From positions 8,346 through 72,345 of the forward strand of contig DAYH01000030.1 of the NCBI GenBank assembly GCA_002506825.1: 64,000 bases of DNA, written 5' to 3'. Below, one piece after another: positions 1 through 28,509 of this stretch. How positions within the stretch are numbered: the first letter of the stretch is position 1; every line of letters starts with the position of its first letter. A program made the translations under genes and the position numbers. The DNA is from Euryarchaeota archaeon UBA103. GTDB taxonomy: Archaea > Thermoplasmatota > Poseidoniia > Poseidoniales > Thalassarchaeaceae. The notes beneath the pieces are model-generated. The model saw nothing but the letters and a program-made list of their open reading frames with translations. It was not told the origin of the DNA and searched no databases.

Positions 1-3000
1 AGATAGATGGGACGCAACTTCCTTCGGGTTGGACTTGGGAAGATATTACGCCAGGAGGGAGTAACAGCGTTCAGATTGCAACTGGAGAGTCGTGGTCGCC
101 GTTGATCGAGATTGTCGCACCTTCCACGGCCATGGGTTCGGATTCGGGCTTCCTTGGCTTGACAATGTCCCTTGATAGTGACTCGAACGTTAGTGTTTCG
201 TCGATACTGCCTATTGAAGCCAATAGGACTAGAGGGCTTTCTATTAGGGGGCCAGAGGGTGCATCATATAGCTCAGGCTACGGATTAATTGGCGATTCTG
301 CCAGAGCGTGGATAGTTGTAGAAAATATTGGGAACGCTTTGGAGAACCAAATCTCCTTGGATTGGGGAAATACACTTTGGGGCAGTGATCTAAGATTAAT
401 TGATGAAGGGGGCAATGAGAGATTCGCTTTGGTTCTTGATCCAGGGGAGAGGCTGGTGCTGGAGGCTTATCTTGATGTACCATTGGTGGATGAAAATCAG
501 CAGACGGTATCGATTGGAGATTATGTTGAAACTGCCCTAACACTGTGTGTTGATGGAAATGAGGCGTGTCAAACTGTTGACTTGACATTCATAGCTTCGG
601 GAGTAATTAGTAGGAGTCACATTAGAAGTGTCCCTTCCAATGGCCTTGAGTGGATCGTGGAAGCTAATGGGCCAGTTGGTGAAAATTTGCTCTCTTGGTC
701 CCTTTCATCAGCCGGAATGGCAAAGACTGGCTGGTCTTGGACTGCGTCGGGGGACCTGTCCATAAACGGGGATAATCTTTCGATGAATATTTCAAGCGGA
801 AGTGGAGTAGGAATTTTATCACTGGATCTTCCCAATAATGCGGCTCCTGCGTTTCACTACTTCGAAGATAACAGTGAAGAGTCGGTATCGCATTCACTGA
901 GGCTATCACTGGAGATACTCCAAATATTCAGGTCTTCTATGGTAATCACATCGCCTAATGATCAGCCTTTCCTTGTAGAGGTTGATGATGAGTCACTGGT
1001 TGTCTTGAGGCTAGAAAATCCGGGAAACGGCGATGATTCATTCAGTCTGGATTTTTCTGTAGTAATAGATGAAAACATCACAGAAGACCCTGGAGTTGAT
1101 GTATCATTTTCAAGAGAATTCGTTTCTTTATCTGCAGGCAGTCTAACCACCGTTCCTGTAACTGTTCTCTTGCCTGAGAATACCCCTGCCAGAGTGCCAC
1201 TGAAAGTTTCATTCACGATGCAATCTGAAGGAGATTCCAATGCTTTCTCCACTGTCGAAATTATCTTTGAGGCTAGACAGGATCATCAATGGAACATCTA
1301 CCCGTTCTTGCCTAGTGAGTCTGGGGATATTTATGCAGACGGACAAACCTTCCAAGCCAACCCTGGAGAGTCTATTTCATTGGACGTACTAGTAACAAAT
1401 GTTGGTAATTTAATAGATGATCTAACATTAGTAACGTCGGTTACAACTTCCTTGGAGACTGGTGATTCCTCATCAGAGTGGGCTTCTAGTGGAAGTACAA
1501 TTTCTAGTCTGGGAGTGAACGAAACTGGGACTATTAAAGTGAATACTAGCATACCACTGGATGCATGGAGTGGGTCATCGGTTGATGTGATGGTTACCGC
1601 TTTAGCACAAGGTCAAGAAATTACAACATTCTCATTTTCGGTGGTCTCTGGCCATGTTCCTTCATGGAATGCAGTTATTGATCAGGCTAACTTGGAAGTT
1701 GACCCACGAGGCTCAGAAATTACACTTTCAGTATTACAGATGGGGAACTCTCCGAGCCGTCCTTACATCTCCATGTTTGTATCGGGAGAACAGGGTTGGG
1801 AAATCGGAAATATATCAGAGATGCCTATGATAAATCCAGGAAATAGTGCCCCTCTATTACTCAACATTACTCCTCCCAGTAATGCAGTACATGGGAGAGC
1901 GGTTGAGCTGACGCTAAGAATCAAAGAGGGAGATTCGAGCGGATTGTCTGAAATAGTATTCCCTCTGAGAGTTGCAGTAACTCATGATTTCTCTTTGTCT
2001 GGGCAGGGGGATTGGGTGATTAGCCAAGATGGGGGATACCCCCTAGGATATATTGAAAATCGGGGGAATGCGCCTAGTACCATTTCAATTCAGATACTCA
2101 GCCTGCCACTAGGTTGGGAGATCTCGGGGGATCAATATGTTATTTTGGGAGTCGGGGAGATCTCTGGCATTCCAATTGAGCTATTGCCCGATGAGAGCTG
2201 GGACGGCGATGTCAAGACAATAAGAATCCTGGCCGAAGACTCCGAAGGTAACCAAAGAGAAATCTCGATGGATACCCGGATGGAGAGCTACTCATGGTCT
2301 ACCAGTCCGGTAATCATTTCTACCTCGGGTGACAGCTATGTCTTGGGAGTTCATCGAACCGGTTCCGAGAGTACAATAATTGATTCTGAAAATGGGCTGC
2401 TTCAGTGGAGCGACGCGGGAGGATGGCTATGGGGCTCTGGAGCAGGAGGAAATGGAAGCGTGAATGTTAATTCATCCACAATACTCGAGTATAGATCTTG
2501 GGTATCTGAACCGTCTTTTAGGCAGGCTAGTTGCTCTGTAGGGGGAAGCGTGAATTCTGTTGAAGCCAGTTGCACCATATTGAATGGGAGTGACAAATTT
2601 GCATATACTCTGATTCTTTCTGACGATCGAGGCAATATGCTGGATTCGGTTTCAGGATTACTTGAGGCCGAAGAGTCGTCTGGAATGATAAATCTCAGTG
2701 CGGATGATTGGGGCCCTCTACCAGGGAGAAGTGAGTTGACAATTAGGGTCATTGATTCCAGGGGAATTGAGTTTTCTTCCGATAGCAACATATTCGAAGT
2801 TAGAAGAACTGATTGGAATGTCGGGCTGGTTGGATTGGAGATTGTAGGCACTGGACAGGATCAAGAAATATCAATACTCACCAAGAGAGAGAATCATCAA
2901 ATTTTAGATGGTTCGATTTGTCTGGTTGACATTGAGGCCGGGGCCTTTACTGCAGAATACATAGTCGATATGTCAGAATCTAGTGCTCTAGCCCCCAGGC

Positions 3001-3470
3001 CTACCATAGATAGGCCGGATGTCAAAGATGGAGTAGAATTAGTGGCTAAGATAAGCTGTGGGTTCCCTTGGGACATTGATTCAAATCCTTCTGACGATGA
3101 GGCAAGAATAATTCTATCTGGGTCCGACGGGTCCGAAGGGGGCTTCAGTGACTCCAGTACTGCATTAGCATCGGCTAGCTTGGTGATCGGAATTTCGATA
3201 GCTTTCGCATGGATGGCTAGAAATTTCAGAGAAGGCAGGGAAATGATGGAGAAAACTAGGCAAGCTGTAGAGAAAAAGGCATTGGAAAGGAAGGCCAATA
3301 TGGCAAAGGATGTACAAGCCGTTGATGATAAAACGAATAAAGAAGAAGAGATTTCGGAATTATCGGAAGAAGTACCTGCGAGGGCTAGCGAAGAAGTACC
3401 CCAAGAAGACAAAGAAAGCCTACTTGATAGCTTTGAACAACGTCTTAATCGTCTCAGATCGGAAAAGTAG
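1..3470 (+). CDS. Large cell-surface (adhesin/S-layer-like) glycoprotein, 5'-truncated by the window edge. CARDB/NEW3-like beta-sandwich repeats, C-terminal TM anchor and a charged cytoplasmic tail.
   Basis: The frame is open from nt 3, with no stop upstream of the TTG at 102, so the N-terminus lies outside the window. Recurrent 'x-N-x-G-N' strands: ENIGNALENQISL, LENPGNGDDSFSLDF, VTNVGNLIDDLTLV, LQMGNSPSRPYIS, IENRGNAPSTISIQ. Also LSLPLGWEISG. Many N-x-S/T sequons. Hydrophobic span ALASASLVIGISIAFAWMA, then a ~80-aa K/E-rich tail. Confidence 0.75.
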   Translation, partial: IDGTQLPSGWTWEDITPGGSNSVQIATGESWSPLIEIVAPSTAMGSDSGFLGLTMSLDSDSNVSVSSILPIEANRTRGLSIRGPEGASYSSGYGLIGDSARAWIVVENIGNALENQISLDWGNTLWGSDLRLIDEGGNERFALVLDPGERLVLEAYLDVPLVDENQQTVSIGDYVETALTLCVDGNEACQTVDLTFIASGVISRSHIRSVPSNGLEWIVEANGPVGENLLSWSLSSAGMAKTGWSWTASGDLSINGDNLSMNISSGSGVGILSLDLPNNAAPAFHYFEDNSEESVSHSLRLSLEILQIFRSSMVITSPNDQPFLVEVDDESLVVLRLENPGNGDDSFSLDFSVVIDENITEDPGVDVSFSREFVSLSAGSLTTVPVTVLLPENTPARVPLKVSFTMQSEGDSNAFSTVEIIFEARQDHQWNIYPFLPSESGDIYADGQTFQANPGESISLDVLVTNVGNLIDDLTLVTSVTTSLETGDSSSEWASSGSTISSLGVNETGTIKVNTSIPLDAWSGSSVDVMVTALAQGQEITTFSFSVVSGHVPSWNAVIDQANLEVDPRGSEITLSVLQMGNSPSRPYISMFVSGEQGWEIGNISEMPMINPGNSAPLLLNITPPSNAVHGRAVELTLRIKEGDSSGLSEIVFPLRVAVTHDFSLSGQGDWVISQDGGYPLGYIENRGNAPSTISIQILSLPLGWEISGDQYVILGVGEISGIPIELLPDESWDGDVKTIRILAEDSEGNQREISMDTRMESYSWSTSPVIISTSGDSYVLGVHRTGSESTIIDSENGLLQWSDAGGWLWGSGAGGNGSVNVNSSTILEYRSWVSEPSFRQASCSVGGSVNSVEASCTILNGSDKFAYTLILSDDRGNMLDSVSGLLEAEESSGMINLSADDWGPLPGRSELTIRVIDSRGIEFSSDSNIFEVRRTDWNVGLVGLEIVGTGQDQEISILTKRENHQILDGSICLVDIEAGAFTAEYIVDMSESSALAPRPTIDRPDVKDGVELVAKISCGFPWDIDSNPSDDEARIILSGSDGSEGGFSDSSTALASASLVIGISIAFAWMARNFREGREMMEKTRQAVEKKALERKANMAKDVQAVDDKTNKEEEISELSEEVPARASEEVPQEDKESLLDSFEQRLNRLRSEK

Positions 3471-3480
3471 TGGTGAAAAG

Positions 3481-4107
3481 ATGTCCACAAATTCTAATCT
3501 TCCTAGTTTCCATACATTTGACCCAATATTGAATGACCCCCTGGAAATCATTCATGCAATACTATCGTCCCTGGGAGGGGATCACACAGAATTGAAGAAG
3601 GCAAGCCCTCTTTCGAGAGATATTCAGAATCTAAAGGAAGGGATTGAACCTGTTTTTGACCCCGCCACAATGCTATACTTGTCCATAGTTGAATTGGATT
3701 CAGAGGGACGGAGGGAGGGTTCGATAGACTCCAGCTCTGGAAAGGAAAGACTAGGTAGATTTCCCTATGGGGATGGAAATATCGTTACCTATCTCTTGGA
3801 AAATACTAGAGAGAAAGGGGATATGACCATTTTACATGACCTCCTATCCAAACTCTCTGACGGATTATCTGAAGAAAACTTAGGCGAGTTGGGATTCAGA
3901 GAGGGATTTGGAGGTTTGACCCTCCTAGGATGGTTGAACAGGCGAGAAGTATCAGAGTTACGTAGCGCAATTCGGTCCGGGAGGTGGGAAGTACTTTCAG
4001 AAGAGCCTTTGGATGGTGGAGTAGACTATGCTTTCAGACTCTTGCTCGCAATGCTTAGATCCGCTCAAAGGAAGAGATGCGGGGTCCTGATGAGAAGGCA
4101 TTCATAA
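3481..4107 (+). CDS. Hypothetical cytoplasmic protein (208 aa)
   Basis: The ORF track starts at 3310 and overlaps the upstream gene by 160 nt in a K/R-rich out-of-frame read. The internal ATG at 3481 (MSTNSNLPSF...) lies 10 nt after the upstream stop. No recognisable motifs. Confidence 0.55.
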   Translation: MSTNSNLPSFHTFDPILNDPLEIIHAILSSLGGDHTELKKASPLSRDIQNLKEGIEPVFDPATMLYLSIVELDSEGRREGSIDSSSGKERLGRFPYGDGNIVTYLLENTREKGDMTILHDLLSKLSDGLSEENLGELGFREGFGGLTLLGWLNRREVSELRSAIRSGRWEVLSEEPLDGGVDYAFRLLLAMLRSAQRKRCGVLMRRHS

Positions 4108-4108
4108 G

Positions 4109-5020
4109 CTAGAATTCTTGACCCGTCAGGCGCTCGAACATAGTGGCATAAAGCTCTGATGTTTGTCTAATTATCTCATCTGGAAGAGGGGGGATTGGGG
4201 GTTCTTCGGTACCTGCTTCCCTAGCGGCATAAAGTTGCTCATAATGGCCAGTTGAGAGATAGTGCTCCCTAACAAACTCCTTAGATAGCGACACAATCTT
4301 TCCATTCTCATAATCATCTGCGGCCCACCATCTATCTTCGTCTAGGGTCCCGAATGAATCCACTAGAACTGGAACCCGGCCATGGCCAAGTGCGAATTCT
4401 TTCTTTCCATCCACATGAATGAGTCCTCTCTTAGATGCCTCCCTATTGATAATTTCATCTATCTTCACAACAATATCAAGGATAGCATCGAACTCCTCCT
4501 CCTTTAGATTGGAGATTTCTAAAGCCTCTTTACGATCCAATAATCTGTCAAATTTCTCAAATTTAGTTGAAACTTCTAGATAGGGAGCTGGTAGTTTAAT
4601 TCCTTCGTATAGCACAGTTCCGGGTTGGAATCCGAATTCCTCTGATCCGACATCGCCTCTATCATATCTCCTCCATCCACCTCCAGCGAGGTAGTGCCTA
4701 CAAATAACCTCCAGAGGGACGAAAACATTCTCCATATCTCGAGGAATTGCCCCTGGCTCCCTAATTACCTCAAATCGACGTGCTAGAACTCTGTCTGGTG
4801 CATTCATTTCGATAACATGGGTTTGACATATCTCGGCTTCCTCTACCAACTTGAACCAATGGCATGAAGTCCTGTTTAGACTCTCTCCCTTTCTTGGAAC
4901 CAAACTTGGTATGATTTGATCAAAAACGCTAATCTGATCCGTGTACCTAAATTCTATTACATCCGGATCTTCTGTACTCCATACTTCCTTGACTTTGCCC
5001 TTGTATAGCATGCCTACCAT
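4109..5020 (-). CDS. purC: Phosphoribosylaminoimidazole-succinocarboxamide (SAICAR) synthase
   Basis: N-terminus MLYKGKVKEVWSTEDPDVIEFRYTDQISVFDQIIPSLVPRKGESLNRTSCHWF matches the PurC pattern (LYEGKAK...TDRISAFD...IP.KG..L). The track start at 5065 is TTG; ATG candidates are at 5020 (MVGMLYK) and 5011 (MLYK). Confidence 0.85.
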   Translation of the reverse strand: MVGMLYKGKVKEVWSTEDPDVIEFRYTDQISVFDQIIPSLVPRKGESLNRTSCHWFKLVEEAEICQTHVIEMNAPDRVLARRFEVIREPGAIPRDMENVFVPLEVICRHYLAGGGWRRYDRGDVGSEEFGFQPGTVLYEGIKLPAPYLEVSTKFEKFDRLLDRKEALEISNLKEEEFDAILDIVVKIDEIINREASKRGLIHVDGKKEFALGHGRVPVLVDSFGTLDEDRWWAADDYENGKIVSLSKEFVREHYLSTGHYEQLYAAREAGTEEPPIPPLPDEIIRQTSELYATMFERLTGQEF

Positions 5021-5085
5021 GTTACAAGGAAGGGAAAGATGATGATGAACATTACTGAAAGACAATCAGATTTTTCAGTACCGCC

Positions 5086-5098
5086 GGGACTATATCCC
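5086..5098. promoter_or_regulatory. Near-palindromic TATA-like element in the divergent purC / ABC-permease intergenic region
   Basis: GGGACTATATCCC (reverse complement GGGATATAGTCCC) sits between the two divergently transcribed genes, ~35 nt from the ATG at 5127. Confidence 0.3.
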
Positions 5099-5126
5099 AA
5101 GAACCTCGCCAAGTAATGGGGAGCGG

Positions 5127-7265
5127 ATGACTGAAACTATGAATTCTGGCAACCGAAGAATTTCCCCCTTGTCATTTCCAGGCTATTTTTCCATTGCATT
5201 GATGATATTACTGGCCCTATCCGTACCTGCAAATGCTCAGGAGTATAGAAGTGGTTGGGACCTCATCAACAGCGGCACGTTACATGACCTTTATTCTGTA
5301 GAGTCTGAAGGGAACGAGGTATGGGCTTTCGGGGAAAATGGCACTATGGTATTGAGTGGAGACGGAGGCCTATCTTGGGAGGTAGGTGAATCTCTCACTT
5401 CTTCTGATCTGACAATATCGGATTCAGGCTTTGGCTCTTTCTTGGCGGCCAGTATGGATGGTACGATTCTAATTAAGTCTGGAAATGAAATGACATGGTC
5501 GGATATATCATTAGATATTGGGGATGAATCGATTTACGGTGCATGCCTAAATGGCGGTAATGAGGCAGTAATCGTTGGCGGGAATGGGTCCATATGGACT
5601 TACGAAATGCAAGTATGGAGCAATCGTTCAGTTTCTGGGGAAGATCTCCTAGACGTATCTTTCTTAGATTCAGAAAGAGGGATTGCTGTCGGTGAACAAG
5701 GAACAATTCTATTCTCTAATGACGGAGGCTCTTCTTGGGACTACAGGGATGCCCCTACTGAAGCTTCGTCATCGAGGATCATAGACATAGAGTTCTTCAG
5801 TGAAATTAGGGCATATGCCATTACTGATGAAGGAGGAGTTCTGAAGTCTTCGAGAGAGATTAACACAGCAGTGGGATTTCTCTGGAATATGCAATATTTT
5901 GAGTCCGAAGGAGGCTCATCTAATCTTGGAGTAAATCTTACATCTATAGAAATTGCAACAACAAATAAATTTCTTCTTTCTGGAAATGATGGTTACCTCT
6001 CAATGAGCAAGGATGGAGGGAATATAGTAACCCGGCAGATGATTCCACTGGGCAACACAACATCATTCTATGACATAACAATGCTAGATGGCTTCAACGG
6101 CATAGCCGTAGGCAGTAATGGCTCCCTACTTTTGACTGAGAGATCCGGGGAGGATGAACAGGTTGGCTTTGAAGTCATGGACTTCTCAGAATTTGGAAAC
6201 TTTGTAGATTACTCAAAGGGGATGCTGATAGATGGTTTGTATGCCACTATTAACATTGTAATGTTTGGAATTTTTCTCGGCTTCTTCCTCGGAATCTCCC
6301 TCTCGATGATGAAGACCTCGCCTACTACTCTCAAAGAAATTTCTCAGAGGAGGAGTTTGGCAGTGATAAAATCTACAGGAGTGATCTTTACTATAATTGG
6401 GGCCTCCTTAGTAAATCATCTAGTTCCTATTATTGCGAATCTTGGATTGGATGGCTGGGAATATATTTATGCTCCGATTGGAATTATTAATCCTGATGGA
6501 ATTACTGGAGAACTACAATTCGAAAACTTCCTATTCCTAATACTTGGAGTGAGCCTTTTCCTTCTGGGAGTACTCTTCATATCAGCGAATGGAGATTATA
6601 AAAAATCTCACTACAACATTAGGGGTAAAGAAATTATTTGGAATCCTTGGGGCATTAGGCCTCTGAATTTCATTGCAACTATCTACACAGATATTTTCAG
6701 AAATACTCCTCTGATTGTCCAATTCTTGTTCATACATTTTGGAGTCCAGATAGGTGCATTGATCGGCGATCCAGGAGCAGAAATGTTGGATGGCTCTAGT
6801 AATTTCATCCTGGCTTTCCTCAGGGACGATATCCTTTCTAACAGGGCCTGTGTTAGTGCGATATTCGCCTTGGGCCTGAACTCAGGCGCCTACCAGTGCG
6901 AGACAATACGTGGAGCCATTTCCGCAATACCCTCTGGGCAGATGGAGGCTGGAAGAAGTATAGGGCTGAATTACATGCAGACAATGAGACTTGTTATTAT
7001 GCCTCAAGCCATTCGAATTTGCATCCCCCCAATGGGTAATGAGATGGTTAATTTAGTCCTAAATTCATCACTTGCAATGGTAATAGGTTATTCCGAGCTT
7101 ACTCGAAAAGCCAAACTGATTAACGCGGTTACTTTTCAGGTATTCTGGTCCTATGGCATGGTTTTAATTTCCTACTTTATTGTTACTTGGACACTGGCTT
7201 TATTCCTGAGGTATCTTGAGAATAAGACTAGAATTCCTGGACTGGGAATATCCGGAGGGAGCTAA
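5127..7265 (+). CDS. Fusion protein: signal peptide, Asp-box (BNR)/Ycf48-like beta-propeller, and polar-amino-acid-type ABC transporter permease (HisM/GlnP family)
   Basis: N-terminal hydrophobic leader [18 protein letters not shown]. Asp-box motifs [18 protein letters not shown] and a degenerate SKDGGNIV in a ~310-aa repeat-rich region. C-terminal half carries the permease signatures [17 protein letters not shown] and the EAA loop [36 protein letters not shown]. Confidence 0.8.
5238..6162 (+). other. Extracytoplasmic Asp-box/BNR beta-propeller domain of the ABC permease fusion
   Basis: Repeated blade-like pattern of G-x-x-G-T/S-I-L/hydrophobic, then S-x-D-G-G-x-S-W. Examples: [60 protein letters not shown]. 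Confidence 0.6.
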
Positions 7266-7266
7266 A

Positions 7267-8007
7267 ATGGACAGTGTTCTAACTATTTCAGATATGCACA
7301 AAACGTATGCTGGAGGAGTTCATGCAGTACGAGGAGTTTCGTTTGAAGTTAATGAGGGCGAGTCAGTAGCCATAATTGGATCATCTGGAAGTGGGAAATC
7401 CACAGTTCTAAGATGCATAAACAGGCTAATTGAGCCAACTGAAGGAGAAGTAAGGCTTCGTGGAGATTTAATTAATACTCCTTCCGCAGATATCAATAAT
7501 GTAAGATCTCGTATTGGGATGGTGTTCCAGTCTTTCGAGCTATTTTCTCATCTTAGGGTCATTGATAATATCACACTTGGACTGAGACATGTCAGAAAAA
7601 TGAGCAAGAAGGACGCGGAGAGTGAAGCTCTTGAAGTTCTGGAGAAGGTTGACATGCTAGACCGAAAAGATGCTTTTCCTGGAAATCTATCCGGAGGACA
7701 GAAACAACGTGTTGCAATTGCTAGAGCACTTGCAATGAAGCCTGAAGTAATGTTGTTTGACGAGCCTACAAGTGCATTGGATCCAGAATTGATTGGTTCA
7801 GTACTGAAAACAATTCGAGGATTGGCAGACGAGGGAATGACAATGATAGTAGTAACACATGAAATCGGCTTTGCTAGAGATGTAGCAGATAGGGTGATTT
7901 ACATGGATAAGGGAATAATTGCAGAATCTGGGAAGTCATCGATTATTGATAATCCAAAGACGGAACGCCTGAAGAGGTTCCTCTCATCTATCAATGAGGA
8001 AGACTAA
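7267..8007 (+). CDS. ABC transporter ATP-binding protein (polar amino acid family, GlnQ/HisP-like)
   Basis: Walker [10 protein letters not shown], signature [15 protein letters not shown], Walker [13 protein letters not shown]-loop VTHE. ATG at 7267, 1 nt after the permease stop; the track start at 7216 overlaps the permease. Confidence 0.9.
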
Positions 8008-9359
8008 ATCATTCCTTGTGACGTCATGGCCTCTGCAACCTTTAGGAATCCAGCTATATTGGCACCAGCAACATAGTTTCCAGGCATTCCAAATCTTTCT
8101 GCGGTTTCGTATGCATTCTTATGGATATCTACCATTATGGCATCTAGCCTAGAGTCGACCTCTTCACGTGTCCATGACAACCTAAGGCTGTTCTGACTCA
8201 TTTCAAGTCCGGAGGTGGCGACCCCTCCTGCATTGGACGCCTTTCCAGGGGCGAAAAGAATTCCATTCTTTAGGAATACTTCAACTGCTTCGGGAGTACA
8301 CGGCATGTTAGCCCCTTCTGCAACGGCAATAACCTCATTCGCGACTAGCATTTCTGCCTCGGATTCATTTAGCTCATTTTGTGTAGCGCATGGAAGAGCG
8401 ACGTCAACATTAACCCCCCAAAGTCCATTTGGAGTAGGCTCTGGTTCAGATGCATTGAATTCAACACCATCGAAATTATTCGCATACTCTGAAATTCTTC
8501 CTCTTCTGTTGTTCTTTAGGTCCATGATCCAATCTAACTTCTCTCGATCGATCCCAGACGGATCATGAATCCATCCACTAGAGTCGGACATAGTTACTGG
8601 CTTTCCACCGAGATCGAGTACCTTCTCACATGCGAACTGAGCCACGTTTCCTGAACCAGATATAGACACGGTTGCTCCTTTGAACGATCTACCAGTTGTT
8701 GCCAGCATCTCACGTGCGAAGTATACTAATCCGTATCCTGTGGCTTCGGGCCTAATCAAGGATCCACCGTAAGATCTTCCCTTTCCGGTAAGGACCCCTG
8801 TGAATTCATTGGCGAGTTTCTTATACATTCCGAACATGTATCCGATCTCCCGTCCTCCCACGCCAATATCGCCAGCTGGAACATCTAAATCGGCACCGAT
8901 GTGCCTCCATAATTCCATCATAAAGGATTGGCAGAATCTCATTACTTCAGAATCGGACTTACCCTTCGGGTTGAAGTCGGAACCTCCCTTTCCCCCTCCC
9001 ATGGGCAACCCAGTAAGGCTGTTCTTGAACACCTGCTCAAAAGCTAAGAATTTCAATATAGACTGATTCACACTTGGATGGAACCTGAGCCCTCCCTTGT
9101 ATGGCCCGATCGAGCTGCTCATCTGGATTCTGAATCCCCTATTTACTTTCAGATTTCCATCATCATCATACCAAGGAACTCTGAACTGTATAATTCGTTC
9201 AGCCTCTACCATTGCCTCTATTACTGGCATATACTCAGGATACTCCTTGATCACAGGAGTAAGGCTGTCGAGAACCTCCTCAACTGCCTGATGAAATTCA
9301 GACTGGTTCGGATCTCTTGCAATTACGCCATCATATACTGATTTAATTCTGCTATCCAT
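8004..9359 (-). CDS. gdhA: Glutamate dehydrogenase (NAD(P)+)
   Basis: [48 protein letters not shown] is the GDH catalytic Lys/Gly-rich region. GSGNVAQ is the dinucleotide fold. The track start at 9368 is GTG; the ATG at 9359 (MDSRIKS) fits the upstream TATA spacing better. Confidence 0.9.
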
Positions 9360-9384
9360 AGCACTCACCGGTGGTTGAAAGATT

Positions 9385-9466: not shown

Positions 9467-10783
9467 TTAAGAGAATAGAATATTCTCAGAAACCTTGGAT
9501 ACCTTACCTTCATGCCCTGGTAGGGTCATCACATAGAATACCGCCTGGCTAACCTGCCTATTTCTTAATGCCTCGGCAATTGGGGTGTGTTCCCTCAACC
9601 ATCTGGTTCTGCCATCATCACCAATAATTCTAATATCGACTTGAGACATTCTTGGTTCGGCGAGTAGGAGCTTGATATTTGGAACATCTATGGCCACATA
9701 GCCGGGTTCTAGACCGGCCCTCCTAGCAATCTCATCTTCAAATTCGAGCCTCTTGTTGGAGTCCGAAGCAAGCTCTGCCAGTAAATTGATATTTTCGTCA
9801 TTGAGTTCCTGCCTCCTCCTAGATAAGCAAACTTTGAGTAGTTGCCTATACTTCAATCTCCTAATCATATCTCGAGCGAAATCTCCTGCTTCGTGCATTA
9901 CTTGCCAAATCTCTGCGTCTACCCTTCTCTGGAGATCGAAAGTGTCAGGAGTGTTATCTTCACTACGCTCTACTGCCCTCGAGAGCATGACCTCTGTGAC
10001 CCTAGTGACTCTGTGGAAATATACTGCACTGTACATCAGGCCTCTGGCAACGAGCATTCCTTCGAGTGCCGGCAGACCGCCTTCTTCCACCGAAATATCC
10101 CCCCCATGCCTTTCTAGACACCTGATTAGTCTTCTATGATCAATCACTCCATGCTTTACGCCTGTAAAGTGCGAGTCTCTGAGAAGGTAGTCGATTTGGT
10201 CGCAATCTACCGGGCCGTGTACAAGATGAGCCATTGTCTTATCATTCTGAACAAAGTTTGTTTTACCTTCGGTCCAAGAGAGAAGGTTTCTCTCCGAACC
10301 TCTAGCATCGGGACCTCTTATTAGGCCTGCAACCTCCTTAGGATCTATACCGTGATTCTCAAGGATTTCTGGTACGCTTACTCTCTCTTGAATTGATGAC
10401 TCTTCGCCATCCCTTAACACGTCGTAGTCGCCAAGAATAATTCCCTCAGTAATTGACATGTGGTCCAAACCTCCCCTCTCATGTAGAATATGCTCCAATG
10501 TATGAGAATAGGGGCCATGTCCTACATCATGCAATAGCGCGGCAACACTTACCGCATCAGTCTCAGAACTATCTAGGCCCAGAGACTCTGACATCATACC
10601 AGCGACATGAGATACACCGAGGGAATGCTCGAAGCGAGTATGGTGGGCTCCGGGGAATACTAGATGTGCCAGTCCCAGTTGTTTGATATGGCTTAGCTTA
10701 TTCATCTCAGGAGTTTTGAGAAGCTCCTCTCTGACGCCATCAATCCTGAACTGCCCATGGATTGCGTCATTGATTGTTTTCAT
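9467..10783 (-). CDS. HD-domain phosphohydrolase (dGTPase/SAMHD1-like, COG1078-type)
   Basis: HTRFEHSLGVSHVAGMM ... LLHDVGHGPYSH ... DQIDYLLRDSHFTGV are the classic H..HD..D metal-binding and DxxxYxxRD motifs. Confidence 0.8.
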   Translation of the reverse strand: MKTINDAIHGQFRIDGVREELLKTPEMNKLSHIKQLGLAHLVFPGAHHTRFEHSLGVSHVAGMMSESLGLDSSETDAVSVAALLHDVGHGPYSHTLEHILHERGGLDHMSITEGIILGDYDVLRDGEESSIQERVSVPEILENHGIDPKEVAGLIRGPDARGSERNLLSWTEGKTNFVQNDKTMAHLVHGPVDCDQIDYLLRDSHFTGVKHGVIDHRRLIRCLERHGGDISVEEGGLPALEGMLVARGLMYSAVYFHRVTRVTEVMLSRAVERSEDNTPDTFDLQRRVDAEIWQVMHEAGDFARDMIRRLKYRQLLKVCLSRRRQELNDENINLLAELASDSNKRLEFEDEIARRAGLEPGYVAIDVPNIKLLLAEPRMSQVDIRIIGDDGRTRWLREHTPIAEALRNRQVSQAVFYVMTLPGHEGKVSKVSENILFS

Positions 10784-10923
10784 GCAAGCCCCGTCTCTGC
10801 GAGAGTGTGCCCCCCATTAATGGAACTGCCTAGATATGATGGAGATAATTGTAATTCAATTGCATTTCATATGAGATACAATTAATACCCCCCTCCCCTT
10901 TCGACAGTTCAGTAGGTGTCGAT

Positions 10924-11292
10924 ATGTCCGGTCACAGTCCAATGGTCTCACTTAGAATTCCGGAAGATCACCTTCTAGAATTAGACAGAATGGTAGGCTT
11001 TGATGGAATGAGAAATCGTTCTGATGTTATTCGGTCAGCGATTAGAAAGTATCTGACTGACGAGTACCAGGTTAGTGGAGAGAAGGTAGAAGTAAATCTA
11101 GGTCCCGATCTAAGTTCCATAATGGATGATTTCTGTAAATTACATGGTGAGAAACCTGACTCAGTTTTGAGGCAGGCGGCTAGAGAACACATTAGAAGTG
11201 TTACAGTTGAAAACAGTAAAGTTACAGATATGATTTCTTCCAGAATGAATGAGCTGAGAGAAAGAAGCAATGACGATTCAAACGCTATATGA
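10924..11292 (+). CDS. Ribbon-helix-helix (CopG/NikR-N-like) transcriptional regulator
   Basis: VSLRIPEDHLLELDRMVGFDGMRNRSDVIRSAIRKYL fits an RHH beta-strand plus two helices. Small (122 aa) and divergent from the HD gene. Confidence 0.65.
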   Translation: MSGHSPMVSLRIPEDHLLELDRMVGFDGMRNRSDVIRSAIRKYLTDEYQVSGEKVEVNLGPDLSSIMDDFCKLHGEKPDSVLRQAAREHIRSVTVENSKVTDMISSRMNELRERSNDDSNAI

Positions 11293-11332
11293 GGCGAGGG
11301 AAATGTGTGAGGATGGGATGCACAGAACCAAC

Positions 11333-11358
11333 GCGGGGGGGCCTAATAGCCCCCTCGC
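11333..11358. other. 10-bp GC-rich hairpin (one G-U pair) in the 184-nt RHH/XPD intergenic spacer
   Basis: GCGGGGGGGC-CTAATA-GCCCCCTCGC. An upstream copy GCGAGGG (11294-11300) could pair alternatively with CCCTCGC (11352-11358). Confidence 0.4.
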
Positions 11359-11476
11359 ACCCAAATTAAATGGCCTTAGAGGACTTAGGGATAGAGCCAT
11401 GAAAGCCCTCGGAAGTAGTTTCTAGAGGATTAGTCACTACCCAATCTTCTTGGCCGTCCTTTTCCCGGTAAAACAT

Positions 11477-13474
11477 ATGAGTGCGGGCGCGGCAGATTAT
11501 TCTGCAATATTTTTCGCCCATAAAGAAGCCAGAAGATCTCAGATAGAGATGATATCAGATGGGGTCGATACCCTATCTGGAGGAGGCTTCCTACTAGCTG
11601 CTGCACCCACAGGAATAGGAAAAACAGCGGCGGCGCTTGCATCAGCCTTACAAGCCTCATTTGATAACAATCTGTCTCCTGAAAGACCTAAGATAATTTT
11701 CATGACGGGAAGACAGTCTCAACACAGAATAGTAGTGGATACGGTTCGTAAAATTAATTCGAGAATTCCAGATGGAGTTCCAAAAATAACACTGGTCGAC
11801 ATAATCGGAAGGGAGGGCATGTGCGAATATGTGGACCGTTCAACTGGGAGATGCAGTTGTGAGGGCGATATTGTCGAAGAATCTCGTAAGTCTCGTCGGT
11901 CAGACATGAGAAAGAAGTTGCTCGAACAGCCCCGTCACGTAGACTGGAGTGTAAAATATGGAAGAGCTAGGAAAGTTTGCTCTTGGGCGACGGCTAGGAT
12001 GACGGCGGGGCACGCAGATATTCTTGTATGCGACTACAATCATGTTTTCGTGGAGGGGGTCAGGGAGGCATCTTTACCTGCTATGGGCATAGAACTAGAG
12101 AATTCTATTCTAATTGTAGATGAAGCCCATAACCTACCAGATAGGATAAGAAGCGGTTTGGAGAGAAGGGTTACAGATGATGTTTTTAGAAGAGCTTTGG
12201 ATAACATAGAGGAATACAAGGGAAATTTAGAGAAGACTAATTCTGATCTTGAATTGCCTGAATCTAGCCAACTCAGAGACGTAAGAAACCTGGAAATGCA
12301 AGTTAAGGCTCTCCAAGAACCAATATTGAACTGGCTACAGGAAAAGAAGCTTGAAAATGAGGAAACTAAGGGAGATGACTTAAGGATATCAACTCAAGAT
12401 TTCTTGGACGTATTTTCTAAAGCTACGGAAGGCGCCATAGAAGACGATGAAACGGATGAAATTTCTAGAGTAATATTGATGGTAAGACGTTTATTTTCTG
12501 TGACAATTGATGAAGAGGAGGATGCAGATGATGAAGAGCAGAATGATTGTACAAGAATAGCGGAGATGCTTGAAATATGCATCAAGTTCAGAAATAGTTC
12601 TGCATTGTCTTTGGTATTTGACGAACTACTTGATAGTCCACGTATAACCTGTCATCTTCTTGATCCGAGCGTGGTTGGGAAATCAGTGTTCGAAAGATGC
12701 CGTGGATCAATTTTGATGTCTGGAACTCTATTCCCTCCTGAGATGTATTCCGACATACTTGGAATACCAACCATGCAATCTGTTTGTAAAATATATTCAT
12801 CAGATTTTCCAATAGAGAATAGGCCAGTTCTTATCGCCAGCGATGTTACTAGTAAATTTACTGAGCGTGAAAGAAGTATTCCGATCATAGGGCAACATGT
12901 TAGGGCGGTTATTGAAAATACTAATGGAAATGTAGCCATCTTTGCACCCAGTTATAGCATGTTAGAAAGAATACATTCAGACTTCGAAAATTTAGGTTGG
13001 AGTAGTAAAAGAATACTAAAGGAAGAGCAGCGAATGAGTAAGGGAAGAGTGGAGTCTATGATTTCAAAACTCTATGAACAGAAAGAAATGGGAGGTGCAG
13101 TAATCTTTGGAGTTCTGAATGGTAAACTTTCGGAAGGTGTTGACTATTCAGATAATATTCTGGATGCGTTGGTCTGTATTGGGCTGCCCCTTCCCCCCCC
13201 TAGTGCCAAACAGGATGCTTTGATAGAGTACTTCACTAACAAATTTGATAGGAATAGAGCATGGAAGTATGCTAGTCTTCAACCTGCTGTAAATAGTATT
13301 CTCCAAGCACTGGGAAGGCCGATAAGGAAGAAGCAGGACAGAGCAATAATTGTACTATTGGAAAAGAGAATCCTTGAGCGGAGGATCAGTGATTGTATGC
13401 CTTCGATGATGAAGATGCAAACCTCAAAACCCTCTAGGACCGCAGAGAGAGTAAAGGCATTCTTCGACATCTAG
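11477..13474 (+). CDS. XPD/Rad3-type Fe-S DNA helicase (DEAD_2 family)
   Basis: Walker A AAPTGIGKTAAAL. Four-Cys Fe-S module (EGMCEY, GRCSCEG, KVCSW). VCDYNHVF. DEAH box IVDEAHNL. C-terminal GKLSEGVDYSDN and QALGRPIRKKQDRAIIVLLEKR. The track start at 11450 is TTG; ATG at 11477. Confidence 0.85.
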   Translation: MSAGAADYSAIFFAHKEARRSQIEMISDGVDTLSGGGFLLAAAPTGIGKTAAALASALQASFDNNLSPERPKIIFMTGRQSQHRIVVDTVRKINSRIPDGVPKITLVDIIGREGMCEYVDRSTGRCSCEGDIVEESRKSRRSDMRKKLLEQPRHVDWSVKYGRARKVCSWATARMTAGHADILVCDYNHVFVEGVREASLPAMGIELENSILIVDEAHNLPDRIRSGLERRVTDDVFRRALDNIEEYKGNLEKTNSDLELPESSQLRDVRNLEMQVKALQEPILNWLQEKKLENEETKGDDLRISTQDFLDVFSKATEGAIEDDETDEISRVILMVRRLFSVTIDEEEDADDEEQNDCTRIAEMLEICIKFRNSSALSLVFDELLDSPRITCHLLDPSVVGKSVFERCRGSILMSGTLFPPEMYSDILGIPTMQSVCKIYSSDFPIENRPVLIASDVTSKFTERERSIPIIGQHVRAVIENTNGNVAIFAPSYSMLERIHSDFENLGWSSKRILKEEQRMSKGRVESMISKLYEQKEMGGAVIFGVLNGKLSEGVDYSDNILDALVCIGLPLPPPSAKQDALIEYFTNKFDRNRAWKYASLQPAVNSILQALGRPIRKKQDRAIIVLLEKRILERRISDCMPSMMKMQTSKPSRTAERVKAFFDI

Positions 13475-13514: not shown

Positions 13515-13985
13515 ATGGAGTGGACCAGAGTTTCGATAGGAGAGAAAAAAGGCGATGTTCCTCAGATCCCAACACTTCCTGAATCATCAGGGCTTGATAC
13601 TGATGCCTTGTCATCTCATCAAAGATTCATGTCGAGTATTGGCCACATGACTGAAGTAATTGATAATCATGAAAAATCAACAAAAAGAGTATTACTTCCT
13701 GGGGTTGAGGCTTTAGGCGGATTTGACTCCATTAGATCCTTTCAAGACGGAGTTTCCGCGATAGGCGCTGAATCAATTGGTAACGGATTAGAGATTCTAC
13801 TATCAAAATCTATTATGGGCGAAGTACTTCTTCAGAAGATGGCTGTAGAGTCAGGACAGGCCATAAGACTAGTAGTGCCGGAAAAGTTTGGAGGAAACGT
13901 AGAGTCGTTCATGCTCCCCTTTGGGGCGACTGTGGACGAGGCGTTCTGGGATGGAAATAGATTGAAGATAACCTTCAATTACTAA
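13515..13985 (+). CDS. Hypothetical protein (156 aa)
   Basis: ATG-initiated ORF 40 nt after the helicase gene, same strand. No recognisable motifs. Its stop overlaps the stop of the convergent giant gene. Confidence 0.5.
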   Translation: MEWTRVSIGEKKGDVPQIPTLPESSGLDTDALSSHQRFMSSIGHMTEVIDNHEKSTKRVLLPGVEALGGFDSIRSFQDGVSAIGAESIGNGLEILLSKSIMGEVLLQKMAVESGQAIRLVVPEKFGGNVESFMLPFGATVDEAFWDGNRLKITFNY

Positions 13986-16900
13986 TCTTCAATTATTTTT
14001 CCTTTGGACCTTATTGGAACTTCCTCAAGTTGGTCTATTTCTTGTAGTACCGAGTTGAGAGCCATCTGGGCGCTTTCCCTATGTTGATCTCCAAGAACGT
14101 GACTGGAATACCTGGCTTCTTCGAATATTCTATCCAGCGACAGTAATGCCTGTTCACTTATTGGAAGTGCGCTCCTAATTGCCATTTCGAATTCCCTCAC
14201 TGTTTCGAAATCCCTTCTAAGGAACCCTCTACTCATCAATATTTTACAAAGTCCTTCATAACAATTGAAGATCGCTTCCCTAACTTCGTCTCCAGCGGCA
14301 AGAAGTTCTGCAGTGTAGCTAAATACGCCTGCCAATTCATCAATAGCAGCCTTCTTCTTTTTCCTTATGGAGACTACTAATGCTGAAACTCCTATCATGA
14401 ATGCTACCAGAATTATCGATAATATCGCGGGCCTTAGTAGTGAATCCGAAGCCTCGGCCTGATAGTTTATCTCAACTTCACTAAACTGGGCTAATTGAGT
14501 GGCGTTGACTGGATCGATAATGTCGGAGTCAGAGCTGAATTCCATATTCAACTCGCCCCAGAAGTCCCTATCCCAGAATGAGTGCTCTTCATGGAATGAC
14601 TCAAATTGATAGTTGAATATCCCATTTTCATCTGTCATCCCAACTACAGTAAAGAGTGTGTTAGTATCATTAGTTAGTCTGGCAGTTATGGACACGCCCT
14701 CTACTGGAGGGGCCCTATTATCATCTGAAGCGGTAACATTGATTTTTCCAGAAATCTTAGTCTGGCCCCTCTCGATAAAGAGTACATCAGGAATAAATTC
14801 AAAGTCAACACTAACTAGTATCTGCAGATCGAATTCCAGAGAAGCACCATTAAGGAATCTCTCTGCATCGGGATCCACTTCTATGGTAAAGACAGAATTA
14901 CCTGGTGGCATGTACGTTTTTGCATTGGAAGTAATTAGGAACTGACCTGTTGCTTGGTCCCATGTAATGATTGCATTTGGCTCTAACGACCCCTCCCATA
15001 GGAGTGACATTTCCATTTCTTCCATAGTATTTCCATCGCCCCCGATTTCAAGTACCCTGCCTCTGACTGTTATTGGCCTAGTCTCATCGCCTCTAACAAC
15101 CTCGTCCGATATCAGGAGTATTTCCACATTGATATCAGCCCTTGAGAAAACAGTAGTATTTGTCGAGTCAGGGAGATACAGCTCCTCTCCGTAAAAACTG
15201 ACTGATACTAGGTGGGCGCCTCGAGAAATTGAGTATCCTAATTCATGTGTGAACGAAAACGTCCCATCTATTCCTGTAGTCACTACCAAGATCTCGTTAC
15301 CGTCCAATATGAAAGAAATATTCCTATTTTCCAATCCTGGGCTCCCAGAGGTATCAGAATCATAGAGCCTCCCTGAGAAGTTCCACATTCCCCCTCTCGT
15401 TGCTACGCTGTTCTCGACATTTAGGGTAATAGTAGTGTGATATGCGATCGTGAGATTTGTCTCTACTGAAGTCTGTCGATAGTAGCCTTGATCGGGAGAA
15501 ATCACAGTTACTGGATGAACTCCCACATCTAGGAACTCTGAGACGACCCATGAAAGATGCCAACTACCATCCTCCTCAGTCACGGTAGTTCCTATCAATA
15601 TACCATCTACGAATATCTGTAATGAGTGATTTGAAAGCCACCCATCGGGAAGATTATCCCTAACTGTTCCTCTAAGATTTAGTTCATCCCCAACAGCTAT
15701 TGGTTCTGGATCTTCCACAGTCAGCACTGTGGGCGAGAATACAGTGAAGATTGTAGTAGAGTTTGATCCGAGGATGAATTCCTCGCCCTCGAATGATAGT
15801 GTTACCTCCCTCGGCCCGAGAGGCATATCAGAAGGAACGGGGAAGAATAGACTAAATGAGCCATTTGCATCCACATTGAGCGAGGTCAACATCTGCCCAT
15901 TCATGTAAGCATCGAGACTTCTGTTAGGGAGTGGTCTTCCGGCACCATCGGTTAAAATTCCTTCAATTAGTAAGAGTTCGTTTCTGTCTATCTCGCCCTG
16001 AGGAGTAGTTAGAACTACTTGTGAAGTCTGCGTTACGTTGAACGGAGTTGTAGTAATTGACGATAAGTAATATTCCGGGTTCAGTGAGTCTCCTTGACCC
16101 ATGGGGTCGACCCATGTAAAACCGCCTAGGAACTCGATACTGAATGTATGCTGACCATAGTCCATATCCAATGGGAGGTCGTATGTGATTTGCCATGTGC
16201 CAGATGATGAGTTTGAAATATCGATGTACAGGGGTCCGACGTCAATCCCATCTATCGAGAGGTGAACGACCCCACCTTTCGGTGAACCGTCCTCAAGCAA
16301 AGGTAAGCCATGCTCGTCCAGGAGTGTTCCTCTGAATATTACCTGCTCCCCGGCTACAGCAGAACCTGAAATATCTGCCACTTCAATAACAGTCGGGGCC
16401 AGAATAATTATCCTAGTCCAAGTCTGATCGCCAGATAATCCAGTAGTTCCATTTATTCCGTCGAAAACCGCAGTCACGGTCATAGGTCCAGGATTTCTAT
16501 TTGAGTCGGTTGCTAAACTCGTGTTAATGAGGCCGTTTGAATCGGTAAATCCTGACCATGTCTGAAGACCATCAACTAGAATTTTAACTTCTACATTACC
16601 GACATTTTCTCCGGCATTATCCATTATGGAAATATTTAGGTCTGATGGATCCCCTCTGACTGTTCTTGCATTTGGATCCAGATCTGTTGGGTTGATAATC
16701 GATATCATTGAGAATCCCCTGCTATCGAAACTTCCGTTGCTAGAACTTGAGCTGTAATAATTTACAGTCGGTGTGTATGTAGCTGAGATGTTGTGTGTCC
16801 CCCTCGGGAATGACATCTCCAAGAAAATTCTGGCTGACCAACTTCCATTTGGATCGACTGCTCCTCCCGAAACTGAGAATCCCGTAGAGACATTATCGAT

Positions 16901-22933: not shown

Positions 22934-23010
22934 GCTACTCACCTCTACCTAGGGCGGAAAGTAGGGCTCTTAAGAGGAATGGAGCGTCGTTCGGACACTG
23001 CCTCATTCTA

Positions 23011-27447: not shown

Positions 27448-28509
27448 ATGATGGCGACGCGACTACCGACCGTTGACACATCGAAAATAGGCATAGATTC
27501 CTGTTCTGGATCAGATACTGAAAGTCATAAAAGTAGAGTAGAAAGGGAGCGAAAAAGACTCCCAAACTGGTTCAGGACCAGTCTTCCAGTCGGTAAATCG
27601 CAGTCCAGGTACAACAGTACTATGTCTAGCGTCAAGGAGAATGGTTTGAACACAGTATGTGTTGAAGCCAGATGCCCCAATATCCATGACTGCTGGGGCA
27701 GAGGGACTGCAACTTTCATGATTGCCGGTGATGTATGTACGAGAGGATGTAGATTCTGTGCAGTTGATACCGCAAAGTTTCCACCTCCACTAAATCCTGA
27801 TGAGCCTGAAGATTTGGCTCTAGCAATAGATAGCATGGGAATAAATCATGCAGTGATCACAGTTGTCAACAGAGACGACCTGCCTGATGGAGGAGCCGCA
27901 CACTACAGAAAATGTATAATGGCGGTTCATCAGAGGTGTCCAGATGTAGGCATAGAGCTTCTTTGCTCCGACCTAGATGGGAATTTGGACTCTTTGAAGA
28001 TTCTACTAGAAGATTTACCAATACGTGTTTTTGCTCATAATGTTGAGTGTGTACCGAGGCTCGACAAAGTGGTCAGAGACAGAAGGGCCTCATTCGCACA
28101 ATCTTTGGAGATTCTCGCGGTGGCTAAGAGTTTACGGCCAGATCTGAAGACGAAAACTAGTATCATGGTGGGGCTCGGAGAGACAGACTCAGAGGTGATC
28201 GAAGCCATGAAAATGGTCAGATCGTCTGAAGTTGATATGATTACCCTTGGACAGTATCTTCAACCAGGTGGGCGTCATCTACCAGTTGATAGGTTCCCAG
28301 AGCCTTCACAATTCGCTGATTGGGACCGGGAAGCAAGAGAAATGGGTTTCTCAGCTGTTGCCAGCGGGCCTTTGGTGAGGTCCAGTTATCGCGCGGGCCT
28401 CCTATGGGAAGAAGCCATGGGATTGGAACCAGTAGTAACTAGGGAGTCCACTGGTTCGGCTGTGAGTCACCTTACATTTTCACCTGTCAAAGGAGGCCAA
28501 AAGATATGA
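27448..28509 (+). CDS. lipA: Lipoyl synthase (radical SAM)
   Basis: Auxiliary cluster CVEARCPNIHDC (Cx4Cx5C) and radical-SAM CTRGCRFC (Cx3Cx2C). GTATFMIAGDVCTR. Confidence 0.9.
   Translation: MMATRLPTVDTSKIGIDSCSGSDTESHKSRVERERKRLPNWFRTSLPVGKSQSRYNSTMSSVKENGLNTVCVEARCPNIHDCWGRGTATFMIAGDVCTRGCRFCAVDTAKFPPPLNPDEPEDLALAIDSMGINHAVITVVNRDDLPDGGAAHYRKCIMAVHQRCPDVGIELLCSDLDGNLDSLKILLEDLPIRVFAHNVECVPRLDKVVRDRRASFAQSLEILAVAKSLRPDLKTKTSIMVGLGETDSEVIEAMKMVRSSEVDMITLGQYLQPGGRHLPVDRFPEPSQFADWDREAREMGFSAVASGPLVRSSYRAGLLWEEAMGLEPVVTRESTGSAVSHLTFSPVKGGQKI

Follow-up and report, generated by a model that had tools for sequence, protein, structure and literature searches.

We analyzed a 64,000-nucleotide stretch of DNA from Euryarchaeota archaeon UBA103 (contig DAYH01000030.1, positions 8,346 to 72,345; called the window below) and found in it a two-gene ATP-binding cassette (ABC) transporter whose permease is fused to a β-propeller. 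The fusion gene (positions 5127 to 7265 of the window, forward strand) is an uninterrupted frame of 712 amino acids that encodes a signal peptide, a propeller, and a permease, and it is followed by the gene for a GlnQ-type ABC ATPase (7267 to 8007, forward strand; 246 amino acids). We regard this anatomy as close to certain. Judged from its sequence, the gene pair is a type I ABC importer of the polar amino acid transport (PAAT; TC 3.A.1.3) family, with amino acid uptake predicted. Descriptions of type I ABC importers, to our knowledge, present hinge-bending binding proteins as strictly required, and the known fused ectodomains share the fold of those proteins. The propeller-permease family breaks this pattern with a rigid Ycf48-type propeller and a co-evolved membrane insertion, so that the transporter is new in both the fold of its ectodomain and its membrane part. 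We tentatively favor an accessory role, in which the propeller would serve a type I importer of otherwise canonical design as a module for docking, capture, or gating.

RESULTS

The fused ectodomain is a seven-bladed propeller

The original prediction for this locus had described a signal-like leader followed by a region of blade-like repeats, and both descriptions were borne out. Residues 1 to 37 (5127 to 5237; every feature of the two genes lies on the forward strand) resemble a cleavable Sec signal and, on inspection by eye, comprise an n-region with RR, a 13-residue hydrophobic core, and a cleavage-type site between PANA and QE. Hydropathy of the leader peaks over residues 15 to 33, and the AQE/AQS...SGW boundary is kept in the family alignment.

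Residues 38 to 340 (5238 to 6146) form a seven-bladed, Ycf48-like Asp-box β-propeller. They match Pfam PSII_BNR (PF14870; E = 5e-15; 55.9 bits, cutoff 27), and an AlphaFold2 (AF2) model built on 27 family members places 28 strands in seven four-stranded blades over residues 44 to 337, with the strand at residues 44 to 48 closing blade 7. The predicted local distance difference test (pLDDT) score of this model is 85 to 92 in blades 1 to 5 and 70 to 87 in blades 6 and 7. In a Foldseek search of the Protein Data Bank (PDB), a check that the original prediction had proposed, the top 12 matches were all Ycf48 (2xbg/5oj3/5ojp; E of about 1e-13; template modeling [TM] score of 0.70 to 0.74; 19% identity); the best had a score of 0.73, and WD40 proteins ranked after the Ycf48 entries. 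The fused ectodomain does not have the periplasmic binding protein (class I/II, Venus flytrap) fold and consists of a propeller instead.

Two canonical Asp-boxes and degenerate ones lie where they had been predicted. The canonical boxes are SGDGGLSW (residues 77 to 84; 5355 to 5378) and SNDGGSSW (residues 197 to 204; 5715 to 5738), the latter with a conserved DYRDAP directly after it; the degenerate ones are SKDGGNIV (residues 294 to 301; 6006 to 6029) and, by direct reading, KSGNEMTW (residues 117 to 124). Among 77 full-length family members, at least 97% keep S77, G81, and W84 of the first box, G200, G201, W204, R207, and P210 in and after the second, and S294 and G298 of the degenerate box at residue 294. 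Invariant non-glycine positions of the propeller in the same set include W44, F68, W84, F179, W204, R207, P210, R228, S241, W253, E259, and P307; R207, R228, and E259 are located in blades 4 and 5.

The ectodomain also weakly matches a glycosyl hydrolase-like BNR family (NCBIfam F510_1955; 4e-4). No sialidase was found among the top fold matches or among the Pfam and NCBIfam matches of the fusion protein, and no FRIP/RIP motif was seen in residues 38 to 340 when the sequence was read by eye. An identity as a sialidase or GH33-type hydrolase was rejected because the propeller has seven blades, not six, and no FRIP motif was seen.

The permease is of the polar amino acid type and carries a two-helix insertion

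The propeller is joined to the first transmembrane helix (TM1) by an acidic linker and pre-TM1 segment of 22 residues (341 to 362; 6147 to 6212), in which G341, G347, F348, F356, F359, and V360 are nearly invariant and FGNFVDYS aligns with the N terminus of ArtQ. The tether between propeller and TM1 is about 10 to 25 residues long. The predicted fusion of the propeller to a polar amino acid-type permease with an EAA loop was upheld by Pfam (BPD_transp_1, PF00528; E = 1.4e-14), by NCBIfam, and by alignment with ArtQ. The NCBIfam matches are to the polar amino acid permeases TcyL, GlnP, EhuC, HisM, and ArtQ, all under the equivalog cutoffs, and the substrate therefore cannot be named. The core is closest to ArtQ of Art(QN)2 (PDB code 4YMS; E = 2e-29), with which it aligned in three pieces: residues 356 to 398 with ArtQ 5 to 46 (TM1), 509 to 541 with ArtQ 47 to 79 (TM2), and 575 to 702 with ArtQ 88 to 215 (TM3 to TM5). 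Residues 509 to 712 and the stop codon (6651 to 7265) make up TM2 to TM5 of this core, including a 22-residue EAA coupling loop (residues 607 to 628; 6945 to 7010) in which nearly every residue is invariant among the 77 members.

Since ArtQ residues 46 and 47 are contiguous, residues 399 to 508 (6321 to 6650) are a 110-residue insertion between canonical TM1 and TM2. It holds two extra TM helices (hydropathy peaks at residues 411 to 441 and 468 to 486) that are joined by an acidic outer loop and followed by a basic segment, as well as a cytoplasmic β-hairpin. Within the outer loop, L439, L441, G443, E445, P450, G452, and P456 are kept in at least 97% of the 77 members. TM1 itself (residues 363 to 398; 6213 to 6320; hydropathy peak at 377 to 395) is followed by a 14-residue stretch rich in lysine and arginine, which indicates the presumptive cytoplasmic side, and the positive-inside rule holds both after TM1 and after the inserted hairpin. 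Permeases of the ArtQ/GlnP type have an N-out topology. From this topology, the leader, and the positively charged segments after TM1 and the inserted hairpin, we infer that the propeller and the inserted loop lie outside the cell.

The TM1-TM2 junction is a hot spot for insertions. The 110 residues found in the window compare with up to about 300 residues and several more predicted helices elsewhere, the longest being in homologues of 840 to 940 amino acids (e.g., P0062, P0065, P0103, and P0055; alignment columns of about 470 to 890). A second insertion, of about 20 residues in the outer loop between TM2 and TM3, marks another clade.

The next gene encodes the matching ATPase, as predicted. 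It matches Pfam ABC_tran (PF00005; E = 3e-38) and NCBIfam GlnQ (284.6 bits, cutoff 379), and direct reading found the Walker A and B motifs, the Q-loop, the signature LSGGQKQR, and the H-loop VTHE all intact. The permease stop codon, TAA, and one further base precede the ATPase ATG at 7267; the TTG at 7216 listed by the open reading frame (ORF) finder was rejected as the start in favor of this ATG. The ATPase start lies 0 to 2 nucleotides past the permease stop in all related loci, and the ATPase is probably translationally coupled to the fusion gene.

The fusion is conserved throughout the family and under purifying selection

Proteins with the same two domains make up 276 clusters, extending to identities as low as about 45%, and are encoded by 158 species-level genomes in the GTDB collection. 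Independent metagenome contigs and single-cell assemblies carry the fusion as well. The ratio of nonsynonymous to synonymous substitution rates (dN/dS; Nei-Gojobori method, close relatives) is 0.06 to 0.10 for the propeller, 0.05 to 0.22 for the inserted hairpin, and 0.01 to 0.04 for the permease core; the linker with TM1 is the most constrained stretch, at 0.004 to 0.06. The propeller is thus under purifying selection, and it evolves 4 to 8 times faster than the permease core. A frameshift or assembly join between 6160 and 6220, which the original prediction had named as a possible source of an artificial fusion, is ruled out by the 158 species with the same architecture and by the highly constrained linker.

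That the fusion is an artifact of a frameshift or chimeric assembly, or else a decaying gene, seems to us vanishingly improbable. Weak transcription is the observation that would fit decay: in an excerpt of coastal metatranscriptome data, the operon reached 0.02 to 0.09 counts per million (CPM), compared with 40 to 53 CPM for aapJ, a binding protein gene in the same genome (PMC9723583). Against artifact and decay alike stand an architecture that recurs unchanged in 158 species and across independent assemblies and single-cell genomes, the lack of in-frame stops in the fusion gene, a linker that is the most conserved part, and the intact ATPase motifs.

The taxonomic and locus survey covered the best 80 of the 158 loci. 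The comparison of fused with split versions that the original prediction had called for found the fusion throughout and no split version, in which a stand-alone propeller would lie beside a plain permease. The two "propeller-only" proteins, P0151 and P0127, end inside the linker or TM1 and are probably fragments of fusions cut at contig ends. Gene order is essentially invariant in the 80 fetched loci: purC is divergent from the fusion gene, the ATPase gene follows the fusion gene in the same direction, and the glutamate dehydrogenase (gdh) and HD genes point back toward it. The ATPase gene adjoins the fusion gene in every locus.

The titles of the host records read Marine Group II (MGII) or Candidatus Poseidoniales, and the family label, where one is given, is always Thalassarchaeaceae, also for a divergent branch (P0145) whose ectodomain is 37% identical. 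The genomes nearest to the window, UBA121, UBA463, and UBA62 (86 to 88% identity), and seven others are all MGIIb in Tully's genome table. No fusion from MGIIa or from outside the order was seen among the loci surveyed. The closest relatives of the ectodomain that are not fused to a permease are giant multi-propeller surface proteins, several of them with bacterial type IX secretion system (T9SS) sorting domains.

Neither a propeller-permease fusion nor this gene is described in the full-text literature on transporter fusions and MGII amino acid transport that we searched. The public trace of the gene consists of automatic annotation, namely a JGI name and the Prokka label "Ycf48-like protein hcf136_1" in a supplementary table.

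One sister clade encodes a binding protein beside the fusion gene

The original prediction had held that no substrate-binding protein (SBP) gene accompanies the transporter. This stood for the window and failed for the family. We built a hidden Markov model (HMM) from GlnH (its sequence checked against the PDB), HisJ, ArtJ, and FliY and searched it over all ORFs of 84 loci and of the window. Within the window, Pfam returned neither PF00497 nor any other SBP family among about 45 ORFs, no ORF of at least 100 amino acids matched the HMM, and tblastn found no match to the sister clade's SBP. An adjacent PF00497 gene is present in 16 of the 80 related loci (15 found by HMM and the sixteenth by tblastn) and on the four metagenome contigs (L016-L018, L025, L026, L029, L030, L032-L035, L037, L044, L046, L052, L059, and L085-L088). 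The other 64 loci have no SBP gene within 10 kb and no remnant detectable by tblastn, and their spacer between purC and the fusion gene measures 15 to 160 nucleotides.

The SBP gene encodes about 326 amino acids and lies between purC and the fusion gene, divergent from the latter and codirectional with the former (e.g., L018, 8920 to 9900, reverse strand). In the window, the corresponding site is the empty 61-nucleotide spacer at 5066 to 5126. The product matches Pfam SBP_bac_3 (PF00497) above threshold; it begins with a signal peptide and is anchored by a C-terminal TM segment. It is circularly permuted with respect to GlnH and HisJ: residues of about 30 to 145 correspond to the C-terminal half of the profile and those of about 180 to 292 to the N-terminal half. 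An AF2 model (pLDDT 70) weakly matches proteins of the type II periplasmic binding fold (TM-score of 0.2 to 0.46).

A profile search of a 5.8-billion-protein collection returned only 88 clusters of this SBP, all strong orthologues (35 to 100% identity) without a tail of distant matches. On independent contigs, two of the most divergent members occupy the same position beside a fusion gene, and every context examined adjoins a fusion gene, so that the SBP family appears to exist only as a neighbor of the propeller-permease. Separately, a 552-amino-acid permease (P0373) that had come up as a weak hit was set aside as an unrelated SBP-permease locus. The dN/dS of the propeller in the SBP clade is 0.07 (L029/L035), the same as elsewhere, and the conserved propeller residues hold in both the SBP-bearing and the SBP-less groups. 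Since constraint on the propeller is unchanged where a dedicated SBP accompanies it, the propeller is not simply standing in for one.

The genes aapJ and livK are reported to be among the most transcribed in MGII archaea (PMC6336850, PMC9723583), and an orthologue of our operon is listed in the annotation of the MGIIb-O1 metagenome-assembled genome SIMO Bin 19-2 (PMC9723583). In the excerpt of that annotation available, gene 153 is the ATPase and gene 155 is purC, and the fusion orthologue carries a GH33 match at 4e-6. The original prediction had proposed a search for an orphan SBP gene elsewhere in related genomes. In the same excerpt, aapJ (PF00497) lies about 70 kb from the fusion operon and is followed by permeases of 800 and 577 amino acids and an ATPase. 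A binding protein gene thus exists, and it was rejected as an orphan partner because it has a complete operon of its own. The fusion pump may nevertheless cross-use AapJ. The permeases of the aapJ system (genes 91 to 94 of SIMO Bin 19-2) are themselves unusually long, compared with about 400 amino acids in Rhizobium, and Thalassarchaeaceae may generally have PAAT permeases with large additions.

The permease-ATPase cassette and its flanks may have different histories

We compared neighbor-joining, midpoint-rooted trees of single genes, which give rough guidance, with purC serving as a proxy for the species tree. In the purC tree, the SBP-bearing loci form one clade that is the sister of the window's clade, and the other three large clades have no SBP. 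Three loci (L021, L027, and L048) are nested in the SBP clade and do not have the gene; L052 is absent from the purC tree. Parsimony mildly favors a gain of the SBP in that one clade, and a loss in the window's clade would be equally possible for that single node.

The tree of the fusion protein disagrees with the purC tree. Between L016-L018 and L026/L030, in which the fusion and ATPase genes occupy about 9900 to 13100 of each locus, identity is 96% for purC and 96% for gdh, 82 to 85% for the SBP, 83% for the ATPase, and 51% for the fusion protein. The contrast between the last value and those of purC and gdh suggests that the permease-ATPase cassette has been exchanged between Thalassarchaeaceae lineages by allelic replacement or recombination, or that it has evolved in very fast bursts at the exposed propeller. 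The propeller is the fastest part of the cassette, with 42 to 47% identity between clades compared with 60 to 70% for the membrane domain.

Other features of the window

The transporter genes are flanked by purC (4109 to 5065, reverse strand) upstream and gdh (8004 to 9368, reverse strand) downstream. The window contains the archaeal markers eRF1, aTrm56, and class I LysRS, and a scan for sigma-70 promoters and terminators was uninformative, the host being an archaeon. Upstream of purC, a 265-amino-acid ORF without a Pfam match (3310 to 4107, forward strand) is kept in most related loci (E of 1e-42 to 1e-119); its 5' end, taken from the first ATG, overlaps the 3' end of the gene for a predicted surface protein of 1,122 amino acids. 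That protein (102 to 3470, forward strand) is one of three very large, acidic predicted surface proteins rich in asparagine, serine, and threonine, the others being of 2,986 (13982 to 22942, reverse strand) and 987 (23011 to 25974, reverse strand) amino acids. The largest has many N-terminal Asp-rich repeats of the DxDxDG (thrombospondin type 3-like) type and a C-terminal TM helix with a cytoplasmic tail. Giant proteins of the CARDB/NPCBM type occupy the same neighborhood in related loci.

Farther downstream, a compact cluster (27448 to 34189, forward strand) encodes lipoyl synthase, 2-oxoacid dehydrogenase E1 alpha and beta, E2, E3, and lipoate-protein ligase, which is consistent with amino acid or keto acid catabolism in a heterotrophic host. 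A 580-amino-acid protein (36048 to 37790, forward strand) combines an N-terminal SAP domain (PF02037; E = 3e-11) with an M28 peptidase domain; the SAP motif is mostly known from eukaryotic chromatin proteins.

DISCUSSION

The original prediction had offered several roles for the propeller. A docking or regulatory ectodomain fits the results better, and substrate capture in place of an SBP is less supported, given that the propeller coexists with one. The accessory role that we favor draws on this coexistence at unchanged constraint, on the precedent of Ycf48 as a membrane-tethered adaptor, and on the occurrence of Ycf48-like propellers beside resistance-nodulation-division (RND) pumps. A single permease gene implies a homodimer and hence two propellers per complex, which would probably have the composition (propeller-permease)2(ATPase)2. 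Each propeller would be placed where the transporter opens to the outside and would probably pack against, or close to, the inserted loop, which would provide a pedestal or contact for it. An extra TM hairpin with a conserved outer loop is what one would expect of a fixed pedestal and not of a freely swinging receptor. The propeller would then act as a docking platform for proteins or ligands that recruits or retains a binding protein, recruits a peptide or another carboxylate-bearing ligand, or gates access; it would not be the sole substrate receptor, and the transport cycle would be that of canonical type I importers. The membrane-anchored PF00497 protein of the neighboring gene would be the partner in the sister clade. 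In the window's lineage, the pump would either borrow a binding protein encoded elsewhere, such as the AapJ of MGIIb genomes, or run on the propeller alone.

Several observations weigh against this accessory role. The original prediction had proposed modeling whether the propeller sits over the pore, and the full-length AF2 model has a predicted TM-score of 0.47, from which interdomain geometry cannot be read. The SBP is confined to one purC clade and parsimony favors its later gain, so that the ancestral and majority state would be a transporter with no dedicated SBP, as expected if the propeller itself were the receptor. Tethered receptors can coexist and compete, as do SBD1 and SBD2 of GlnPQ, and coexistence with an SBP is therefore compatible with a receptor role. 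The invariant R207, R228, and E259 could form a binding site for an amino acid or carboxylate. Finally, among the rows listed for MGIIb-O1, the only PF00497 gene is aapJ, in its own complete operon, and no orphan SBP is documented there, in this one MGIIb genome, that could serve the SBP-less lineages.

These points lead to a reading that we find doubtful on balance, in which the propeller is a tethered substrate receptor with a fold other than that of periplasmic binding proteins, replacing the SBP in most Thalassarchaeaceae and sharing the task with a second, canonical receptor in one clade. The propeller has the topological position of the GlnPQ substrate-binding domains and a similarly short linker; the 64-kb window encodes no SBP, nor do 64 of the 80 loci within 10 kb; the SBP that does occur was probably a later gain; AapJ has permeases and an ATPase of its own; and, in addition to the three invariant charged residues, there is the example of Ycf48, which holds a peptide C terminus in a groove (PMC11449106). 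The obstacles are that a dedicated SBP, where present, does not relax the constraint on the propeller and that no precedent was found in the literature on transporter fusions and MGII amino acid transport. In type I importers, class I and II SBPs signal occupancy by an open-to-closed hinge motion that stimulates the ATPase, and a rigid propeller cannot make this motion. We consider it unlikely that a rigid Asp-box propeller captures an amino acid or peptide C terminus and feeds an SBP-independent type I importer in most Thalassarchaeaceae. If it did, the fold would be new to that role and a new solution to substrate delivery, with ligand occupancy coupled to ATP hydrolysis in the absence of a Venus flytrap protein.

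It is more unlikely still that the propeller plays no part in solute delivery and serves as an envelope or surface layer anchor, a coupling to extracellular hydrolases, a hydrolase itself, or an external sensor. The giant multi-propeller surface proteins that are its nearest unfused relatives, some with T9SS sorting domains, would fit such a role, as would the weak hydrolase-like BNR matches noted above (F510_1955, and GH33 in the orthologue's published annotation). Fast propeller evolution and the apparent replacement of cassette alleles are typical of exposed surface modules, and MGII genomes encode a wealth of huge surface proteins and secreted peptidases (PMC6336850). An enzymatic role is opposed by the blade number (sialidases are six bladed), by the failure to see a FRIP/RIP motif on reading the sequence, and by a best structural match, Ycf48, that is not an enzyme. 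More generally, the tight and exclusive linkage of the propeller to the permease, the ATPase, and, in one clade, the SBP argues for a role in the transport cycle.

If the accessory role is correct, it would extend a theme in which Ycf48-like propellers are extracytoplasmic partners of photosystem II, RND pumps, and ABC importers. The family is maintained, conserved and under selection, in an archaeal group that ranks among the most abundant in the surface ocean and is thought to live on proteins and amino acids. Because lineages with and without an adjacent SBP form a natural comparison set, the role of the propeller is accessible to experiment. Uncultured hosts and weak transcription in one data set limit the practical value.

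Comparison with known systems

The original prediction had compared the fusion with GlnPQ of Lactococcus lactis, and the propeller does occupy the position of the GlnPQ substrate-binding domains, extracytoplasmic and N terminal to the permease. Like GlnPQ and OpuA, the transporter has a PAAT-family permease, a single permease gene and a single ATPase gene, a signal peptide, an extracytoplasmic domain joined to TM1 by a short linker, and an expected two tethered ectodomains per homodimer. It differs from them in that the fused domain is a rigid seven-bladed propeller and not a hinge-bending class II periplasmic binding fold, in the extra two-helix insertion of its permease, and in the separate membrane-anchored SBP of one clade. 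With Art(QN)2 of Thermoanaerobacter tengcongensis, HisQMP2, and TcyJLN it shares the permease core, the EAA loop, a homodimeric permease, and a GlnQ-like ATPase. ArtQ, however, has 220 amino acids with neither ectodomain nor insertion, and Art(QN)2 depends on a soluble or lipid-anchored SBP, ArtI, encoded in its operon. The AapJQMP-type system of the same archaeal family is likewise a PAAT transporter with unusually long permeases and a GlnQ-like ATPase, but, according to the excerpt described above, it has its own highly transcribed PF00497 SBP, two different permeases, and no annotated propeller.

For the ectodomain, the closest comparison is with Ycf48/HCF136, which is also a seven-bladed Asp-box propeller tethered to a membrane on its extracytoplasmic (lumenal) side, and whose family, PSII_BNR, the ectodomain matches above threshold. 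Ycf48 uses an Arg-rich patch to dock onto a polytopic membrane protein from the extracytoplasmic side, and a groove in it accommodates a C-terminal peptide tail (PMC11449106, PMC8038367). The blade register between the two propellers is ambiguous in the HMMER alignment; the fusion has two invariant arginines (R207 and R228) and E259 in blades 4 and 5. It is not an orthologue of the photosystem II assembly factor (NCBIfam equivalog NF010237, 55.7 bits, cutoff 326), its host is a heterotrophic MGII archaeon without photosystem II, and its tether is a covalent fusion to an ABC permease, whereas that of Ycf48 is a lipid. A link between such propellers and transport outside photosynthesis has a bacterial parallel: Ycf48-like BNR proteins of COG4447 are encoded with, and are cofit with, RND-type (COG1033) exporters (10.1101/072470). 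There, as here, a Ycf48-like propeller is tied to a membrane transporter, in that case both genetically and phenotypically, but the bacterial propeller is a separate polypeptide that works with another transporter superfamily, in export, and in a double-membrane context.

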